Positions 1 to 7,587 of a stretch of DNA of 64,000 bases are shown in pieces (the stretch's first letter is position 1; every line of letters starts with the position of its first letter). The stretch covers positions 1,059,476 to 1,123,475 of the forward strand of contig CP097971.1 of the NCBI GenBank assembly GCA_023703615.1. The letters are read 5' to 3'. The DNA is from SAR86 cluster bacterium. GTDB taxonomy: Bacteria > Pseudomonadota > Gammaproteobacteria > Magnimaribacterales > D2472. The translations under genes were made by a program, and so were the position numbers. The notes beneath the pieces were generated by a model that did no database searches, was not told where the DNA came from, and saw only the letters and a list, made by a program, of their open reading frames with translations.

Positions 1-1200
1 AAATTTCTTCAAGCAATCAATTTGGTTGAAAAGTCTGAGGATATTATTGAAGAAAATGATGAGTCTATAGATCCACCTGGATCATCAGATGATCTAGAGA
101 GTAATATTGATGATGTAAATGATGGAGATGAAACTGAAAGCATTGAGTCTAATGAAAGTATGGATATGCCTGATGAAATGCTCTTTGAGGAGGATTCGAC
201 CTCCTCTGCAGAAGCTTCTATTGATGAGGAAATTGAAGCATTATCTTATCCAGAAAATACTTTTAATTCTGAATTACAAAAAAATTACGAAATATATACA
301 AATGATTTTGATGAAGTTATTGATGCAAAAGAGCTGACGACAAATGAAGAATCACTAAGACTCAGAAAACAATTAGATAATCTAATAAAACCCCATCTTA
401 CCACTATAGGAAAACTTGCTAATAGACTTCAAAGATTGCTTCTTGCAAAACAAAATACTAGTTGGAACTATAATCTTGAAGAAGGAATTTTAGATACAGC
501 AAGATTACATAGGATCATTGCAAAACCTGGCTTCCCATTAAGTTTTAAAGAGGAGAAGCAGACAGACTTTAAGGATACTGTAGTTAGTTTGTTGATTGAT
601 AATTCAGGGTCAATGAGAGGAAGATCAATAAGCCTCGCAGCAATCTGTGCAGATATCATTAGTACAACATTAGATAGATGTCAGATTAAAACAGAAATTT
701 TAGGGTTTACAACAAAACATTGGAAAGGTGGACAATCAAAACAATTATGGTTGCAAAGAGGTAGCCGATCCTATCCTGGAAGATTAAACGATATAAGGCA
801 TATTGTTTATAAAAGTGCGGACAATAGCTTAAGGAGAGCTCGTAAGAATTTTGGCACAATGTTAAGAGAAGGTTTGCTAAAAGAAAATATTGATGGTGAA
901 GCGCTTGCATGGTCTCATGAAAGATTAATAAAAAGAGGAGAAGAAAGAAAAATTCTTATTGTTATATCAGATGGAGCACCGGTTGATGATAGTACATTGT
1001 CAGCAAATAAAGATGATTATTTAGATAATCACTTAAAAGAGATAATTTATTTAATTGAAAATAACAGTCCTGTTGAACTTCAAGCCATCGGGATTGGTCA
1101 TGATGTAACAAAATATTATAAAAACGCTTTAACAATTAATAGAGCTGAAGAATTAGGTGAAGTTTTGCTTGATGAGTTAACAAAACTTTTCAAGGATTGA
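1..1200 (+). CDS. cobT: CobT-like protein (cobaltochelatase CobT family), C-terminal part: acidic linker plus von Willebrand factor A domain; 5' end outside window
   Basis: Frame 1 is open from nt 1, so the TTG listed at 22 is internal. D/E/S-rich acidic linker, then [18 protein letters not shown]-type vWA motif [70 protein letters not shown]. This is the CobT/CobT_C pattern. Confidence 0.8.
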
Positions 1201-1251
1201 TAATTAATATAAAATTGGGCTTACGCGTATGCGAATTTAAGGATTAGAATA

Positions 1252-2358
1252 ATGAAAGTTACAAAAAAAAGTGGTCCGCCAAAAGACCTAGTTTATTTTG
1301 ATGAAGATCTTAATCTTACAAAGATGCATGTTGAAGATGTTGTTGAGATTTTTAATACGCCTCTTACAGGATCTTATAATTGGGACTACACAATTGCAGA
1401 TAACCGCATAAAAAAACTTTATGAGTTAGGTAAAGAATTAAATTGGAATGGGTCAATTGATTTAAACTGGGAATATACTCATCCAAGAGATGAAAAAATT
1501 GTTGAGCCTGATGAAGATCTTCCTCACGAAACACTTGAAGCCTATCAAAATCTTTCTGAAGAAGACAAAATATTATTCGACAGACACAGTACTGCTGAAC
1601 TTATGAGTCAATTTTTACATGGGGAACAAGGAGCTTTATTAGTTGCATCTCAACTTGCTTGCTGTGCTCCCACTTACAATGCCAAGTTATATGCAGCATC
1701 ACAGACTTTTGATGAAGCCAGACATGTAGAAGTTTTTAATAGGTATCTTCAGGAAAAAATAGGTATTCATTATCCTATTAATCCAGCATTAAAAATTTTA
1801 TTAGACAAGATTCTTACTGATGAGAGATGGGACCTAAAATTTATTGGCATGCAAATAATTATTGAAGGACTAGCATTAGCTGCTTTTCAAATGCTCAAAG
1901 TAATCACCAAGGATCCTCTGTTAAAGCAACTTCTGCATTATGTTGTAAGAGATGAAGCAAGGCATGTTACGTTTGGTATTAACTATCTCGAAGATTATAT
2001 TAAAACACTTTCTCCAGAAGAGATTAATGAAAGAGCTGAGTTTGCTTATGAGGCATGTGTTATTTCAAGAGAAAGACTTATCAATACGAAATCTGAACAA
2101 AGATTTCTTAAAATGTCAGAGGAAGAAGCTAGAGAATTTCAATTAAATACGAAGACATTTGAGATGTTTAGAAATTTCTTGTTCTCAAGAGTTATACCAA
2201 ATCTTTCAAGAATTGGTCTTTTGACTGATGAGGTAAGACCAAAGTTTGAAGCTTTAGGTCTGCTTGAATATGAGCATGCTCCAAGTGATTTTGAATGTGA
2301 CTGGGCCGAAATGAGAAAACCACTTGAGCAATTTGGTCAAATTCCAGAAGCTATATAA
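1252..2358 (+). CDS. Ferritin-like di-iron carboxylate protein (AurF-like diiron oxygenase family)
   Basis: Two EXXH motifs (FDEARHVEVF, VRDEARHVTFG) plus partner carboxylates (HGEQGALLV, IIIEGLALAAF). N-terminal LYELGKELNWNGSIDLNW resembles the AurF-type family. aagga SD upstream of the ATG. Confidence 0.6.
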   Translation: MKVTKKSGPPKDLVYFDEDLNLTKMHVEDVVEIFNTPLTGSYNWDYTIADNRIKKLYELGKELNWNGSIDLNWEYTHPRDEKIVEPDEDLPHETLEAYQNLSEEDKILFDRHSTAELMSQFLHGEQGALLVASQLACCAPTYNAKLYAASQTFDEARHVEVFNRYLQEKIGIHYPINPALKILLDKILTDERWDLKFIGMQIIIEGLALAAFQMLKVITKDPLLKQLLHYVVRDEARHVTFGINYLEDYIKTLSPEEINERAEFAYEACVISRERLINTKSEQRFLKMSEEEAREFQLNTKTFEMFRNFLFSRVIPNLSRIGLLTDEVRPKFEALGLLEYEHAPSDFECDWAEMRKPLEQFGQIPEAI

Positions 2359-2406
2359 TTCTCATTATTTTTAAATTTTTATATACCAATATATTAGGAT
2401 ACAACT

Positions 2407-3141
2407 ATGTCAAAACACACAGCTATAAATAGATTTGGAAGATCAGGAAATCCTGCATTTTCACAAGGATTTGGAATAAATCAAAGTGTTACTGGAGAAG
2501 TTATGACTCTTGATGGCACTGTTAATAAAACTGGCATTCTTTTAGGATTATGTGTCGGAGGGGCTTATTTTGGCTGGAATGCTCCAGGGCTAGTCTTACC
2601 AGCAGTACTTATTGGATTTGTAATAGCGTTATTTACTATATTTAGACCAAAAAATTCTCCTTATACTGCTCCTGCATATGCAGCTATTGAAGGAGTAGCT
2701 CTTGGCGGAATAACTATGATTTTTGAAGCTCAGTATCCAGGAATAGGTATACAAGCTATTGGATTAACTTTTGGAATACTTGCATCACTTTTATTTTGTT
2801 ATAAAAGTGGAATTATTAAACCAACTGAAAATTTAAGACTTATGATTGTTGCTGGAACAATGGGTATATTTATACTGTACTCAGTTAGCTTTATTATGAG
2901 CTTTTTTGGAAATAGCATTGGATTTATTCATTCAAATGGTCTTTTTGGCATAGGTTTTTCTTTGTTTGTGGTTGCAATTGCTTCACTTAATCTTGTTCTT
3001 GATTTCGATTTTATCGAAGAAGGTGCTGAAAAAGGTATGCCTAAATATCTTGAATGGTATGGTGCATTTAGTCTGATGGTCACTTTGGTATGGTTGTATT
3101 TAGAAATACTCAGACTCCTAGCAAAACTTAGAAGCCGGTAA
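2407..3141 (+). CDS. Bax inhibitor-1-like / YccA-related integral membrane protein
   Basis: Multiple hydrophobic TM segments. N-terminal RSGNPAFS motif is typical of the BaxI_1 (PF12811-like) family. aggat SD-like element upstream. Confidence 0.6.
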   Translation: MSKHTAINRFGRSGNPAFSQGFGINQSVTGEVMTLDGTVNKTGILLGLCVGGAYFGWNAPGLVLPAVLIGFVIALFTIFRPKNSPYTAPAYAAIEGVALGGITMIFEAQYPGIGIQAIGLTFGILASLLFCYKSGIIKPTENLRLMIVAGTMGIFILYSVSFIMSFFGNSIGFIHSNGLFGIGFSLFVVAIASLNLVLDFDFIEEGAEKGMPKYLEWYGAFSLMVTLVWLYLEILRLLAKLRSR

Positions 3142-3236
3142 CCTCGTTGAACTCAATCGCATTTATAGTATTGGCATTATTTTCTTTATTTGTTTTTTTT
3201 AAATTAGGAAAGGTAAGAGCCTCTAATAAGCAACTC

Positions 3237-3272
3237 AATAGAAATAATAGAATTAATAGAATTAATAGATTT
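3237..3272. repeat. 9-bp tandem repeat x4 (aatagaaat aatagaatt aatagaatt aatagattt)
   Basis: Read directly from the sequence. Lies between the BI-1-like gene and the DUF305-LVIVD gene, inside a doubtful 68-aa ORF, where it encodes NRNNRINRINRF. Confidence 0.85.
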
Positions 3273-3321
3273 GGACAATCTAATAAATCTAATATCTATG
3301 AAGGAGAAGCAAAAGAAATTC

Positions 3322-5487
3322 ATGAAGACAAAAAAGAAGATAAAGATAACTAAAAAATTTGCCGTTCTTTTAACATTAATACTTTTAAATAATTTAGTAT
3401 TATCAAAAGAAGCGCCAATACTACAACCAGGATCTCCTGGAGAACCATCAAAAATTCTTGATGAGAAATCTGCAACAGATATTGCAAATACATCATATAT
3501 TCATGCTGATATTAGTTTTCTGCGGGGAATGATAATTCATCATGAACAAGCAATTCTTATGGCAAGCATGATAACTGAAAGAACCAACAATAAAAAAATT
3601 GTGGATCTTGGAAAAAGAATAGATGTTTCTCAAAAAGATGAAATAAATTTCATGGAAAGTTGGCTAAAAGATAGAAATGAATTTGAATCTAAAGCACATA
3701 ATCATATCCATCATGAAATGATTGGTATGGCATCGAAGATGCAACTTGATAAACTTGAAAACTCTTCAAGTGCAGATTTTGACAGATTATTTCTTCAATT
3801 GATGATTGCGCATCATGACGGTGCACTTGAAATGGTCGAAGAACTTAAAAAATATCCTGGGTCAACATACGATCCAATTCTCAATGAATTTGTTTCAGAT
3901 TTAGTAAATGATCAAGGTATTGAGATTGAAAGAATGAATACTATTGCTGTGAATATCTCTGATGATCCTAGATCAGGTTTATCGCCAGGACTATATATTG
4001 CTGGTGAAGCAATATTAAATCTTGAATTAATTGCTTCCCTAAGAAAGCCTGCTGGTTTTTTTGATCCTAAAAATCCAGAAGGAAAAGGATCTGAGGATCT
4101 TACAGAAGATAATTCAGATAAAACTACAGAAGAAATGTCTAGATCTCTAAGAAGCCCGATGTTAAGTTTTGCTAGCACTGATATGGCATTTCAGGATGAT
4201 ATTCTTATTGCTGGTAGTTATCATGGTTTTAACATATACAAGTTGAATACTAATGGTATTCCTGAATTAGTTTCATCTGTTGTTTGTCCCGGTGGGCAAG
4301 GAGACGTTTCCATAGTTGATGATTTACTTATTATGTCGGTAGAGGAAAATAGAAGCAGAATTGATTGCGGTCTTGAAGGTGTAAAAAGTGATGCAAGTCA
4401 AGAAAGATTTAGAGGAATTAGAATTTTTGATATATCTGATCTTTCCAATCCTAGACAAGTTGGAGCAGTTCAAACTTGTAGAGGCTCACATACCCATTCT
4501 GTTGTTTCGTCCTCAACTGTTGATAATAAAATTATTGTCTATAATTCTGGGACGGGCCGAGTAAGAGATATTGAAGAAATGGATACCTGTTTTGGTTGGA
4601 GTAGTGGTGGATCTTCATATTTTACGATCGATATTATTGAAATTCCAATTAGCAATCCAGAAAAATCAAAAATTGTTAAGAGTCCAGCTGTCTTCACAAA
4701 TCTAGAAACTGGCAATCGAGCAGGTTTATGGAGTGGTGGCGATCATGGTGAGGAGACTCAAGATACCAAAGCAACAGATCAATGTCATGATATAACTGTC
4801 TTTCCAACAGCTAAGATTGCAGCAGGAGCATGTTCTGGAAATGGAATCTTATTTGATATATCAGATCCTTATAACCCTACCAGGCTAGATGCTGTAAGAG
4901 ATATTGGATTTGCATATTGGCATTCAGCAACATTTAATAATGATGGAACAAAAGTAATATTTACTGACGAATGGGGTGGCGGTGGAAGAGCAAGATGTAG
5001 AGCATCGGATCCTTTAGACTGGGGTGCTGATGCAATTTACGAAATTATTAATAATAAACTAGTCTTTAAAAGTCACTACAAGATGCCAGCGCCACAATTA
5101 GAAACTGAAAATTGCGTTGCGCATAATGGCTCAATAATTCCAATTCCAAATAGAGATATATTTGTTCAAGCTTGGTACCAGGGTGGTTTATCTATAATGG
5201 ATTTTACTGATTCTGAAAATCCACAAGAAATTGCTTATTTTGATAGAGGTCCAATTTTTGATGATATTTTGATTACAGGCGGTTATTGGTCAACGTATTT
5301 TTATAATGGGTATATATACGGAACTGAGATTAAAAGAGGTCTTGATGTTTTTAAACTTGTGCCAAGCGAGTTCTTAACAGAGACTGAGATTGATGCAGCT
5401 TCAAATGCATATCCTATATCTGGTTCAAAAGTTTTTAATCCTCAGCAGCAAATTCCAATGACCTGGATTGAGAGTGCATCAGAATAA
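3322..5487 (+). CDS. Secreted DUF305 (x2) - LVIVD-repeat beta-propeller fusion protein, putative metal (copper?) binding
   Basis: ORF opens at 3271. The ATG at 3322 gives a classical signal peptide (MKTKKKIKITKKFAVLLTLILLNNLVLS) with aaggag 16 nt upstream. Two DUF305-type units (FLRGMIIHHEQAILMA, FLQLMIAHHDGALEMV) with linker AHNHIHHEMIGM. C-terminal ~480 aa carry LVIVD-like blades (DVSIVDDLLIMSVEE, IRIFDISDLSNPRQV, ILFDISDPYNPTRL, LSIMDFTDSENPQEIAYFD). Confidence 0.7.
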   Translation: MKTKKKIKITKKFAVLLTLILLNNLVLSKEAPILQPGSPGEPSKILDEKSATDIANTSYIHADISFLRGMIIHHEQAILMASMITERTNNKKIVDLGKRIDVSQKDEINFMESWLKDRNEFESKAHNHIHHEMIGMASKMQLDKLENSSSADFDRLFLQLMIAHHDGALEMVEELKKYPGSTYDPILNEFVSDLVNDQGIEIERMNTIAVNISDDPRSGLSPGLYIAGEAILNLELIASLRKPAGFFDPKNPEGKGSEDLTEDNSDKTTEEMSRSLRSPMLSFASTDMAFQDDILIAGSYHGFNIYKLNTNGIPELVSSVVCPGGQGDVSIVDDLLIMSVEENRSRIDCGLEGVKSDASQERFRGIRIFDISDLSNPRQVGAVQTCRGSHTHSVVSSSTVDNKIIVYNSGTGRVRDIEEMDTCFGWSSGGSSYFTIDIIEIPISNPEKSKIVKSPAVFTNLETGNRAGLWSGGDHGEETQDTKATDQCHDITVFPTAKIAAGACSGNGILFDISDPYNPTRLDAVRDIGFAYWHSATFNNDGTKVIFTDEWGGGGRARCRASDPLDWGADAIYEIINNKLVFKSHYKMPAPQLETENCVAHNGSIIPIPNRDIFVQAWYQGGLSIMDFTDSENPQEIAYFDRGPIFDDILITGGYWSTYFYNGYIYGTEIKRGLDVFKLVPSEFLTETEIDAASNAYPISGSKVFNPQQQIPMTWIESASE

Positions 5488-5499
5488 GTTGTAAAAACT

Positions 5500-6333
5500 A
5501 TGAAATTAGGAATTGACTTTGGAATTACAAATACGGATATAGTTCTTTGTGAAGGTAATGCAAAAAAGTTCTATTCAATGCCTTCAGAGCAAATAAATGA
5601 AGAAATATTTTATAAAGTTTCTAAGCTTATCGGAATTGATTTGATAGATATTAGCAAAATTGCAGTTACAGGAGGCAAATCAAGCGATCTTCCAAATTTA
5701 TATAAAAATATTTCAATAGTTAAAGTAAATGAAGTTGAGGCAATTGGTTTGGGTGCTAAAGAAGTATATGGGTTTGAAGATAAATCTTTTGTTGCAGTTA
5801 GTACTGGAACTGGTACTGCGTGTGTTTTTGGTAAAAAAAATAACTTTACTCATCTTGGAGGAATTTCTATTGGTGGAGGAACTCTTCAGGGGATTTCTAA
5901 TTATTTATTGGGGACATCAGAAATAAATGCAATCACTGATCTAGCGAAAAAAGGTTGTCGAAAAAAACTTGACTTTTCCATTGGTGAGGTAGTGAACGAC
6001 ATAGGCAATCTTTATCCAGAAGTTACTGCGTCTAATTTTGCAAAGGCTAAATTAAATAATAATCATAAAGCTGAAGATGTTGCTGCATCAATTACTAATA
6101 TGATTGGAGAAGTAATTGGAACAGTAGCATATTTAAATGCACTATTAATGAATGTTGATAAGGTATTTTTTTTGGGGAGAGTTTGTAAAATTGAACCAGT
6201 AAAAAATGGTATAATTGACAGACTTAATCTTGCAAGTATTAAAGGTGAATTTAATAAAAGCCTTGAGTATGGTTCTGCGCTGGGCGCACTTGCATTTTTA
6301 TCAATAAATCATGAAAATAACGACATTAAATAA
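5500..6333 (+). CDS. Type II pantothenate kinase-like ASKHA ATPase (Fumble/CoaW family homologue)
   Basis: MKLGIDFGITNTDIV phosphate-1 motif, VSTGTGTA, GGISIGGGTLQGISNYLLG, VTASNFAKA, MIGEVIGTVAYL, C-terminal GSALGALAFL. These are colinear with my memory of staphylococcal CoaW / Fumble-domain kinases. 12 nt after the upstream gene. Confidence 0.55.
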   Translation: MKLGIDFGITNTDIVLCEGNAKKFYSMPSEQINEEIFYKVSKLIGIDLIDISKIAVTGGKSSDLPNLYKNISIVKVNEVEAIGLGAKEVYGFEDKSFVAVSTGTGTACVFGKKNNFTHLGGISIGGGTLQGISNYLLGTSEINAITDLAKKGCRKKLDFSIGEVVNDIGNLYPEVTASNFAKAKLNNNHKAEDVAASITNMIGEVIGTVAYLNALLMNVDKVFFLGRVCKIEPVKNGIIDRLNLASIKGEFNKSLEYGSALGALAFLSINHENNDIK

Positions 6334-6339
6334 ACTATT

Positions 6340-7587
6340 ATGATTGTTACAGATAAATCTTTAGTAATAACATTCGCAATACCTGTCTTTTTTATATTGA
6401 TGTTGGTTGAGTATTTCTATGGGAGATCAGTAGGAAAAAATACTTATAGATTAAATGATACATTCACTAGTGTTGCTATTGGGATGATTAGTAGATATCC
6501 AACAATGCTAAATCTTGGGTTTCAAAGTGCTGTATTTATATTTATAAGTAATAACTTAAATTTTGAGCTTCTTTCAACAAAAAGCCCACTAACATGGGTA
6601 ATTGCTTTTTTGCTTTATGATTTATCATATTATTGGATGCATAGAATGCATCATGAAATTAAGTTTCTTTGGGCTACTCATAGTGTCCATCATCATGGTG
6701 AAGATTTTAATCTTTCAACAGCTTTAAGACAGACAAGTACAGGTTGGTTGTGGAAGTGGGTTTTTTATTTACCAATGGTTTTAATAGGTATCCCAGGTGA
6801 AGTATTTATTACAGTTGCAGGAATTAACTTAGTCTATCAGTTTTGGGTTCATACAGAACATATTGGTCACTTAGGTTTTTTAGAGAAAATTTTCATAACA
6901 CCGATGAACCATGGTATTCATCATGCTAAGAATAAAGAGTATATCGATGCAAATTATGGAGGAGTATTCATAATTTGGGACAGAATGTTTGGAACATATA
7001 TCGCACGCGATCCTGACATTGAACCTGTGTATGGAACCGCGACAGCTTTAAAAAGTTGGAATCCAGTATGGGCAAATTTTCAGATCTTTTCTCAAATGCT
7101 AAAAGATAGTATTAAGACAAAAAAACTCTCTGATAAAATAAAAGTTTGGTACTCCAAAACTCATTGGCGCCCTGAAGACTGTTTAGAAGAAAAGGACCCA
7201 AAAGATTTTTATGTAAAATATAATCCAAACATTACTAATGATATAAAACTGTTTTGTTTCATTCAGCTTGGTTTTATAGGACCTGTATCATATTCAGTCT
7301 TATTTTACATAAGTAACTATACTTATATTGAAATAATATATTTTGGTATTGCATTGTTAGCAATAAGTTCTTTAACTTCATATTTACTGACTGGAAATAA
7401 AAATGCCTATCAGTGGTTATTTGGTTTTTCAATTTTTGGCATTTGTGCAATCTATCCTCTTGGTTTAATCGACTTATCTTTGATTTCAACTCAACTTTTA
7501 CTGGCACAATTTATTACAAATATTGTAATAATAAGTTCGATAACTCTGGCAAAGGTTTTTCTTGAAAAAGAAAAGACTTATAACTAA
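6340..7587 (+). CDS. Fatty acid hydroxylase / sterol desaturase superfamily membrane protein with extra C-terminal TM region
   Basis: Histidine boxes HRMHHE, HSVHHH, HTEH, HGIHHA in a polytopic membrane protein. The last ~115 aa are additional hydrophobic helices. 6 nt after the upstream gene. Confidence 0.75.
   Translation: MIVTDKSLVITFAIPVFFILMLVEYFYGRSVGKNTYRLNDTFTSVAIGMISRYPTMLNLGFQSAVFIFISNNLNFELLSTKSPLTWVIAFLLYDLSYYWMHRMHHEIKFLWATHSVHHHGEDFNLSTALRQTSTGWLWKWVFYLPMVLIGIPGEVFITVAGINLVYQFWVHTEHIGHLGFLEKIFITPMNHGIHHAKNKEYIDANYGGVFIIWDRMFGTYIARDPDIEPVYGTATALKSWNPVWANFQIFSQMLKDSIKTKKLSDKIKVWYSKTHWRPEDCLEEKDPKDFYVKYNPNITNDIKLFCFIQLGFIGPVSYSVLFYISNYTYIEIIYFGIALLAISSLTSYLLTGNKNAYQWLFGFSIFGICAIYPLGLIDLSLISTQLLLAQFITNIVIISSITLAKVFLEKEKTYN

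Follow-up and report, generated by a model that had tools for sequence, protein, structure and literature searches.

A gene for an exported DUF305–propeller protein

We analysed a stretch of 64,000 nucleotides (nt) from the SAR86 cluster bacterium contig CP097971.1 (assembly GCA_023703615.1, positions 1,059,476 to 1,123,475 of the forward strand; hereafter the window), which has a guanine-plus-cytosine content of about 31%, as fits SAR86. A gene on its forward strand encodes a protein of 721 amino acids (aa) in which a signal peptide is followed by a DUF305 domain that resembles the copper-binding protein CopM, and then by a β-propeller. Secondary structure in the list below is taken from an AlphaFold2 (AF2) model.

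3322–5487, + strand: DUF305–propeller gene, 721-aa product (stop codon counted in)
3322–3405, + strand: Sec-type signal peptide MKTKKKIKITKKFAVLLTLILLNNLVLS, aa 1–28, read from the sequence, with cleavage before KEAP
3463–3957, + strand: DUF305/CopM-like four-helix bundle, aa 48–212 (Pfam match 63–208)
3694–3729, + strand: His/Met-rich loop AHNHIHHEMIGM, aa 125–136, joining the two DUF305 halves
3964–4059, + strand: N-terminal closing strands of the propeller module, aa 215–246 (modelled strands 229–232 and 234–241)
4060–4164, + strand: acidic, disordered low-complexity loop inside the propeller module, aa 247–281 (E/S/D-rich)
4174–5358, + strand: seven propeller blades, aa 285–679 (DSSP assignment on the AF2 model)

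The reading frame spans 3271–5487 (+) and is opened by a TTG at 3271 in the list of open reading frames (ORFs). The ATG at 3322, which is preceded by AAGGAG, is most likely the start codon, because it gives the product the same length as P0001, a relative with 98% identity and 721 residues that is named 'DUF305 domain-containing protein [SAR86 cluster bacterium]' by NCBI. A word-indexed search returned at least 8000 database homologues of the protein, all significant and the best 76–98% identical, and sequence conservation on this scale marks the gene as real. An 88-aa ORF on the opposite strand (3912–4178) is a shadow of it.

The N terminus has an n-region rich in K, then a hydrophobic core and finally VLS ahead of the predicted cleavage point (VLS|KE), as expected of the classical signal peptide that had been recognized in an earlier reading of this DNA made from the sequence alone (hereafter the sequence-only reading). 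Inspection of the N terminus revealed neither a lipobox Cys nor a twin-arginine motif. For questions of conservation we used 76 full-length orthologues from 76 species. All of them have a signal-like N terminus and none has a twin-arginine translocation (Tat) motif. Directly after the signal they share a mature start, (A)PI(V/I)QPG(A/S)PG(E/Q), followed by a helix, YSxxDVxFMQxMIxHH, that is conserved in orthologues across phyla. The protein thus looks to be exported by the Sec pathway to the periplasm or beyond.

The N-terminal module is a CopM-like DUF305 domain

Residues 63–208 match PF03713 (DUF305) with E=2.6e-37 and 128.7 bits (cut-off 27), covering profile positions 1–150 of 151. The sequence-only reading had seen two DUF305 units bridged by a His/Met-rich linker. 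The linker is present (aa 125–136), and the two units are helical halves that PF03713 models together as one domain. In the AF2 model the helices of this domain lie at residues 48–82, 91–117, 150–176 and 185–212. Its solved relatives by sequence are DUF305 proteins only: 3bt5 (1.6e-11), CopM of Synechocystis PCC 6803 (5fej, 6.4e-11), 2qf9 and 7vw0-2. The NCBIfam model for CopM itself, NF049983, reaches 74.4 bits in two separate stretches, against a cut-off of 90.

The His/Met-rich loop is flanked by two MxxHH motifs, MIIHH (aa 70–74, 3529–3543) and MIAHH (aa 161–165, 3802–3816), of which HH73–74 and HH164–165 are invariant in the orthologues. The loop is the variable part of the domain: the orthologue segment aligned to residues 115–136 is 22–48 residues long with 15.6% Met and 13.8% His, and some loops carry (MD)n or MDHS repeats. 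In SAR86 AAA168-P09 (locus L007), and also at L053, L058 and L082, it grows into repeats such as SHDHDMHMDMDMDMDMDMDMDMDMDM or MDHSxMDHS, which are similar to the repeats rich in Met and His with which CopA/PcoA-type proteins bind copper.

The protein shares with CopM the DUF305 four-helix bundle with its two MxxHH motifs, a signal peptide and a linker rich in His and Met, and the loop corresponds to the MHxxH linker of CopM. Peptides representing the CopM linker MHxxH and the MxxHH motifs bind Cu(II) (PMC11836926), and CopM, a periplasmic and in part secreted protein that confers copper resistance, binds both Cu(I) and Cu(II) (PMC4335983). By analogy, copper is probably the metal of the DUF305 module here. 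The settings of the two proteins differ. CopM, a product of the copMRS operon, stands alone and has 196 aa (~21.5 kDa) (PMC4335983), whereas the present domain is fused to or encoded beside a 500-aa propeller, and no copper-resistance genes were found near DUF305–propeller loci among the immediate neighbours scanned with Pfam.

The C-terminal module is a seven-bladed propeller of the LVIVD type

The AF2 model, built from a 52-sequence alignment (predicted local distance difference test score (pLDDT) 77.4; predicted template-modelling score (pTM) 0.74), shows the signal helix, the four-helix bundle and seven four-stranded blades: b1 285–321, b2 329–384, b3 391–453, b4 488–526, b5 533–586, b6 600–642 and b7 655–679. 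The boundary with DUF305 lies at about residue 213, which makes the propeller module about 505 residues long (215–721), somewhat more than the 480 or so residues of LVIVD-like blades described previously. The acidic segment that the sequence-only reading had taken for an inter-domain linker is present (aa 247–281; pLDDT <50 at 247–264 and 269–281). Residues 215–246, which precede it, also occur in stand-alone propellers such as P0334 and are conserved in alignment A2, indicating that the acidic stretch is a loop within the propeller module and not a tether.

The assignment to the LVIVD family holds by way of sequence relatives. Against PF08309 (LVIVD) the 721-residue protein scores 12.6–12.9 bits with E=0.07–0.09 (12.6 bits at E=0.087), below the gathering threshold of 20.2, and a direct Pfam assignment is ruled out by this score. 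Several homologues do exceed the threshold, with 23–35 bits, and it is through these and through profile–profile comparison that the propeller can be called LVIVD-type. The TIGR04312 'choice-of-anchor B' model matches weakly at residues 487–678 (E=2.9e-11, 43.2 bits, cut-off 100). Generic LVIVD and TIGR04312 surface proteins resemble the protein at the level of weak matches, and homologues carry varied C-terminal anchor domains; the 721-residue protein falls below both cut-offs, has no anchor domain and has DUF305 at its N terminus instead.

With the C-terminal 485 residues as query, exhaustive HMMER searching gathered 2987 representative clusters (50% identity) at E<=1e-3 and 611 at E<=1e-30. 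In most representatives the propeller directly follows a signal-like N terminus, and some homologues add Big, fn3, RTX, CWB2 or DUF4214 domains. Across 25 divergent members the conserved core consists of CPGxQGD, TCxGSHTH, CHDITV, AAGAC, YWHSATFNNDGTKVxFTDEWGGG, ENCVAHNGS and WYQGG.

The propeller is related to the phosphotriesterase Sb-PTE

A Foldseek search of the Protein Data Bank (PDB) with the model returned as its top hit 5hrm, the phosphotriesterase Sb-PTE of Sphingobium sp. TCM1 (E=1.1e-12, template-modelling score 0.52 on the target, 510 columns), followed by generic WD40 proteins. The same relationship is seen without the model: in a sequence search the propeller-family profile hits 5hrm together with 5ioj ('haloalkylphosphorus hydrolase') at E=6.8e-5, and hhalign of the propeller family against an Sb-PTE family, gathered from an orthologue on a Sphingobium plasmid, gives a probability of 97.5% and E=7.8e-12 over 338 columns, with probabilities of 97–98.6% in local and global modes. 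An earlier hhalign run of alignment A2 against a single Sb-PTE-like sequence gave a partial match at 31% probability and is superseded by these profile–profile runs. By these sequence comparisons, the propeller is homologous to the LVIVD-family enzyme Sb-PTE. Many members of the Sb-PTE family carry the name 'LVIVD repeat-containing protein' and match PF08309, so the view that LVIVD repeats lack an established function is out of date.

Residues of Sb-PTE are numbered here on P0391, a 583-aa protein 95% identical to the plasmid orthologue and of the length of Sb-PTE, which we take as Sb-PTE. Residues E201, H258, H317, E318, H389, E407 and H475 are invariant in a 44-member alignment of its family; six of these (E201, H258, H317, H389, E407 and H475) reportedly (Mabanglo et al. 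2016) serve as the ligands of the binuclear Mn centre. The corresponding positions of the DUF305–propeller protein, all invariant among the 76 orthologues, are as follows.

4303–4305, + strand: D328, just ahead of strand A in blade 2; candidate equivalent of the bridging Glu201; 76/76
4489–4497, + strand: H390-T-H392, entry of blade 3; H390 aligns with ligand H258
4786–4791, + strand: H489-D490, entry of blade 4; aligns with H317-E318
4918–4926, + strand: W533-H534-S535, entry of blade 5; H534 aligns with ligand H389
4963–4971, + strand: T548-D549-E550, end of strand B of blade 5; E550 is the candidate counterpart of Glu407
5122–5127, + strand: H601-N602, entry of blade 6; candidate counterpart of His475

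The residues paired exactly in hhalign are H258=H390, H317-E318=H489-D490, H389=H534, C411=C559 and E441-N442-C443=E596-N597-C598. The blade-5 motif reads GFHS in Sb-PTE itself and GWHS in the consensus of its family. E201, E407 and H475 adjoin indels and are not exactly paired, but in an AF2 model of Sb-PTE they occupy the same blade positions as D328, E550 and H601. E550 lies at +16 from H534 and E407 at +18 from H389, both just after strand B, and the 20–21 residues from H601 to GG621–622 equal the distance from H475 to GG495–496, the anchor being a significant HMMER local match.

The complete set of invariant residues in this region comprises D287, Q326, D328, H390, H392, H489, D490, W533, H534, S535, T548, D549, E550, E596, N597, C598, H601, N602, W656 and S657, together with eight invariant cysteines; H390, H489, H534 and H601 are also near-invariant (>=90%) across the 25 divergent homologues. 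The innermost strands of the modelled blades start, at their N-terminal ends, with D287 (b1), D328 (b2), H390/H392 (b3), H489-D490 (b4), H534 (b5), H601-N602 (b6) and W656-S657 (b7). Given the established geometry of the fold, residues at these strand positions would surround one mouth of the central channel.

The sequence-only reading had noticed a histidine at the entry of several blades and had offered a hub metal site as an inference. Four such histidines, H390, H489, H534 and H601, do open four consecutive blades. Three of them align exactly with ligand histidines of Sb-PTE and candidate counterparts exist for the other three ligands; because of this alignment and of their invariance, the four blade-entry histidines very probably form a hub metal site, and the sequence comparison makes an Sb-PTE-like centre of four histidines and carboxylates very probable.

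The two proteins share the seven-bladed fold, Sb-PTE being the best structural match to the present protein, as well as profile homology, the ligand histidines, the ENC motif and the C559=C411 cysteine, and both are exported. The DUF305–propeller family nevertheless forms a separate subfamily, with its own invariant motifs (VCPGGQGD and FTDEWGGG), eight cysteines, the additional invariant residues H392, D287, Q326 and N602, and large insertions in blades 3–4, and it is always paired with DUF305, unlike the Sb-PTE-subfamily loci examined. The N terminus of Sb-PTE (P0391; L087, 2386–4098) is a long region with an RR motif, KIRRLAVVAPLGLA, that is possibly a Tat signal, whereas the 76 DUF305–propeller orthologues look Sec-like. 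Sharing of the Sb-PTE substrate is unlikely, because sequence identity is only about 12–17%.

One native member of the Sb-PTE subfamily (L091, 5001–10751) lies between a TonB-dependent receptor gene and genes for tannase/feruloyl-esterase, dienelactone-hydrolase-like and arabinofuranosidase proteins. From this context, natural esters may be the substrates of that subfamily's ancestral members.

DUF305 and the propeller form a conserved two-module unit

An N-terminal DUF305 domain is carried by 4 of the 150 best representatives of the propeller family, and such fusions are spread over several 50%-identity clusters. The reverse order also occurs: P0155 (667 aa) has its propeller at 41–432, with an LVIVD score of 23.7 bits, above threshold, and DUF305 at 513–663. 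Its Ala-rich composition suggests an organism of high G+C content.

A genome scan found the two signature peptides of the family in at least 588 species. The top 80 of these provided the species loci analysed here, which are mostly full-length fusions and come from SAR86, Cellvibrionales (Congregibacter, Microbulbifer), Lysobacterales, Woeseiaceae, Erythrobacteraceae, Hyphomonadaceae, Sphingomonadaceae, Acidobacteriota and Thermoanaerobaculia. The fusion therefore spans Gammaproteobacteria, Alphaproteobacteria and Acidobacteriota. Culturable carriers of the full-length fusion include Congregibacter brevis, Microbulbifer flavimaris, Erythrobacter sanguineus, Qipengyuania flava and Blastomonas marina.

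Where the propeller is unfused, a DUF305 gene encoding 209–259 aa lies directly upstream on the same strand in all four cases examined, separated by a 4-nt overlap or an 18-nt gap. These unfused close homologues are about 610–650 aa long and, from the few named cluster members, probably belong to Acidobacteriota. By contrast, no DUF305 gene was found next to the propeller gene at any of three Sb-PTE-subfamily loci. Fusion, reverse fusion and translationally coupled adjacency all occur, which argues that the modules work together and provides strong evidence, at the sequence level, that DUF305 plus propeller is a real conserved unit.

At one locus (L089, 2931–7893) a single DUF305 gene is followed by two tandem genes, of 650 aa (with a 4-nt overlap) and 630 aa. 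The 650-aa product is taken as a propeller paralogue from its size and position only; if the two are paralogues, one DUF305 protein would serve two propellers. On two unrelated contigs (L005, 3934–7936, and L006, 4666–7276) the unit adjoins a molybdoenzyme cluster of the xanthine-dehydrogenase/CO-dehydrogenase type, with Fer2, MoCoBD and, in L005, FAD_binding_5. The cluster was not seen at other loci, and the association may be coincidence.

Two published operons, which we liken to the unit by description and not by sequence, are suggestive. [quoted passage not shown] Its two genes are arranged as in the split DUF305/propeller pairs, the likeness being one of gene order and description. The Starkeya operon differs in adjoining a pair of extracytoplasmic function (ECF) sigma and anti-sigma factor genes; no such regulators lie beside the loci examined here. 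In the literature consulted on the rpoE1 locus of S. meliloti, neither DUF305 nor a propeller is named. A copper-induced operon of M. xanthus places the gene for a DUF305 lipoprotein beside one for a propeller lipoprotein (PMC3707914).

A proposed periplasmic metalloenzyme

We lean, with moderate confidence, towards reading the protein as a periplasmic metalloenzyme with a built-in metal-handling domain of the CopM type. The first module (aa ~48–212) is a CopM-type bundle whose MxxHH motifs and His/Met loop are the copper-binding features of CopM. The second (aa ~215–721), an LVIVD-type propeller that reproduces at the mouth of its channel the Sb-PTE binuclear pattern of four histidines and two carboxylates, would in this proposal be the catalytic module, and probably either a hydrolase dependent on metal or a related enzyme converting a small molecule. 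Because the orthologues have Sec signals and lack a Tat motif, the metal would be acquired outside the cytoplasm: the protein would be exported unfolded and its hub site metallated after export. The DUF305 module would probably capture the metal and then hand it over or buffer it, acting in cis where it is fused and in trans where it is a separate, translationally coupled gene.

Several points weigh against this proposal. Sb-PTE is a Mn(II) enzyme and DUF305/CopM a copper-binding family, so the chaperone and the catalytic metal may not match. The metal, activity and substrate proposed for this subfamily are predictions from comparison with other families. Identity to Sb-PTE is low, as noted above; only three of the six Sb-PTE ligands pair exactly in hhalign; and support here for the list of ligands comes from their invariance in the Sb-PTE family. 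A global MAFFT alignment with Sb-PTE gave a register off by one blade, which we rejected because both proteins are seven-bladed and the two-profile hhalign yields a one-to-one register. Convergence of the hub residues on the axis is predicted from strand topology. The eight invariant cysteines, four of which lie 1–6 residues before hub residues, could be ligands and not disulfides, which would mean a different kind of site. Finally, the gene neighbourhoods described below give no functional clue.

The cysteines bear on a first alternative, a copper-dependent periplasmic oxidase acting on a small molecule such as a sulfur compound, with copper delivered by DUF305 and held by the hub histidines and possibly by cysteine. 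The link of DUF305 to copper, Sec export favouring metallation outside the cytoplasm and the invariant cysteines beside hub histidines (C386-x3-H390, C488-H489 and C598-x2-H601) are all consistent with it, as are the tetrathionate-induced Starkeya operon and the DoxX gene downstream in two SAR86 lineages. We nevertheless consider it rather unlikely: the sole structurally characterized homologue is a Mn hydrolase, the Starkeya propeller is likened by description only, the DoxX adjacency is confined to 2 of the 80 loci, and neither Pfam nor the top 50 Foldseek hits gave a match to SBP56/methanethiol oxidase or another copper-propeller family.

Quite unlikely, too, is a protein that sequesters copper or another metal, or confers tolerance to it, without catalysis, in which DUF305 and the His-rich hub together hold metal, within the periplasm or beyond the cell, as a CopM-like 'metal sponge' or metallophore. 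Such a role would fit the precedent of CopM, a partly secreted copper-binding resistance protein (PMC4335983), the His/Met-rich orthologue linkers of variable length and the copper-induced M. xanthus operon (PMC3707914). It accords less well with the strict invariance of a geometrically specific set of residues across several phyla and the homology to an enzyme site, both of which fit catalysis better, with the retention of the gene in streamlined SAR86 genomes of the copper-poor open ocean, and with the gene neighbourhoods, where Pfam scans of immediate neighbours gave no copper-resistance gene and no family recurs widely in the 80 loci.

A non-enzymatic surface or binding propeller, serving adhesion or protein–protein interaction with DUF305 as an unrelated add-on, is very improbable: the first descriptions of LVIVD repeats came from cell-surface proteins (PMC2447325), LVIVD proteins have been read as attachment factors (bioRxiv 10.1101/2022.05.06.490989) and homologues of the propeller have Big, fn3, RTX and CWB2 anchor domains attached, but the conserved residues here cluster at the predicted channel mouth and match the metal ligands of an enzyme, and the recurring fusion, reverse fusion and adjacent genes argue against an incidental DUF305.

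Both domains are of known kinds, and the databases already name the protein a 'DUF305 domain-containing protein'. In the literature searched we found no description of the fused protein, of a recurring DUF305–propeller module or of its Sb-PTE-type site, in agreement with the earlier impression that the protein is uncharacterized. To our knowledge DUF305 has one studied member, CopM, with no known client protein, and LVIVD propellers one studied enzyme, Sb-PTE, with no known natural ancestor activity. The gene links the two families and so supplies a hypothesis, that of a chaperone and its client metalloenzyme, that can be tested in culturable bacteria. Strong conservation of the protein, its great frequency in marine metagenomes and its retention in streamlined SAR86 genomes make it likely that the substrate is ecologically relevant.

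A bolder form of the proposal, which we regard as doubtful, is that these proteins are a widespread, unrecognized class of periplasmic metalloenzymes with their own CopM-type copper chaperone, a copper or mixed-metal hub and a new propeller reaction. The hub would then consist of five invariant histidines, several carboxylates and possibly the adjacent invariant cysteines. If so, DUF305 would gain a role as a partner-specific metallochaperone, and the class, whose members abound in SAR86 and other marine heterotrophs, would add an unassigned extracytoplasmic activity to surface-ocean biogeochemistry, for instance one that turns over a phosphorus or sulfur compound of the dissolved organic pool.

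Gene neighbourhood

Two genes outside the DUF305–propeller unit follow it on the same strand.

5500–6333, + strand: Fumble/type II pantothenate-kinase-like gene (PF03630, 72 bits; NF009842, 174.5 bits against a cut-off of 234)
6340–7587, + strand: membrane FA_hydroxylase-family gene (PF04116, 97 bits)

The gaps are 12 nt and then 6 nt, as previously described, and the gene identities also agree with the earlier description of a Fumble-type kinase and a membrane hydroxylase. That the DUF305–propeller gene heads a three-gene block is not borne out. The order CobS-CobT-AurF-BaxI-small ORF-DUF305/propeller-Fumble-FA_hydroxylase is kept in the SAR86 relatives L001 and L004 (77–81% identity) and in L007, which are the closest SAR86 relatives and the only places where the two downstream neighbours are found. 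Among the 80 species loci, 64 of which extend 2.2 kb or more downstream and can be evaluated, phmmer detected these neighbours at L007 only. We accordingly give almost no credence to a pathway shared by the three genes: they lie on one strand with short gaps, have no convincing terminator between them and keep their order in the closest relatives, but the neighbours are missing in other SAR86 lineages, and the kinase is cytoplasmic and resembles a housekeeping type II pantothenate kinase, whereas the DUF305–propeller protein is exported. Because the neighbours differ beyond the closest SAR86 relatives, the adjacency in the window is best described, on comparative grounds, as local synteny within a compact genome, as opposed to a pathway. 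The structural part of the sequence-only reading is thus largely right, and its operon idea wrong.

All-against-all clustering of ORFs found no neighbour family in more than about 20 of the 80 loci, and the most recurrent families (~20 loci) reflect synteny within Erythrobacteraceae (GroEL, Pol I and others). Other SAR86 members have different surroundings: L011 (6750–15007) and L054 (3424–14042) have a TonB-dependent receptor gene upstream, with a gap of about 50–60 nt, and an M16 or S9 peptidase gene downstream, and L009 (12241–12624) and L010 (10487–10870) have a downstream gene for a 127-aa DoxX protein whose start overlaps the propeller stop. Neither DoxX nor the TonB-dependent receptor was retained as a partner, each being present at only 2 of the 80 loci.

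Upstream of the DUF305–propeller gene, a block at 22–3141 (+) encodes a CobS-like AAA protein, CobT (VWA), an AurF-like di-iron oxygenase (368 aa, 39.5 bits against 29.6) and a BaxI_1 membrane protein, in an order that is kept at 77–81% identity in the SAR86 relatives L001 and L004 (3075–7800). Between the BaxI_1 and DUF305 genes sits a small ORF (3147–3353, +) with a TTG start, which overlaps the start of the DUF305 gene by 32 nt and encodes 68 residues with a single hydrophobic helix, a basic segment and an acidic tail. It has 62-aa counterparts with clear protein-level similarity in L001 (7799–7987) and L004 (7809–7997), and this conservation suggests that it probably encodes a real small membrane protein.

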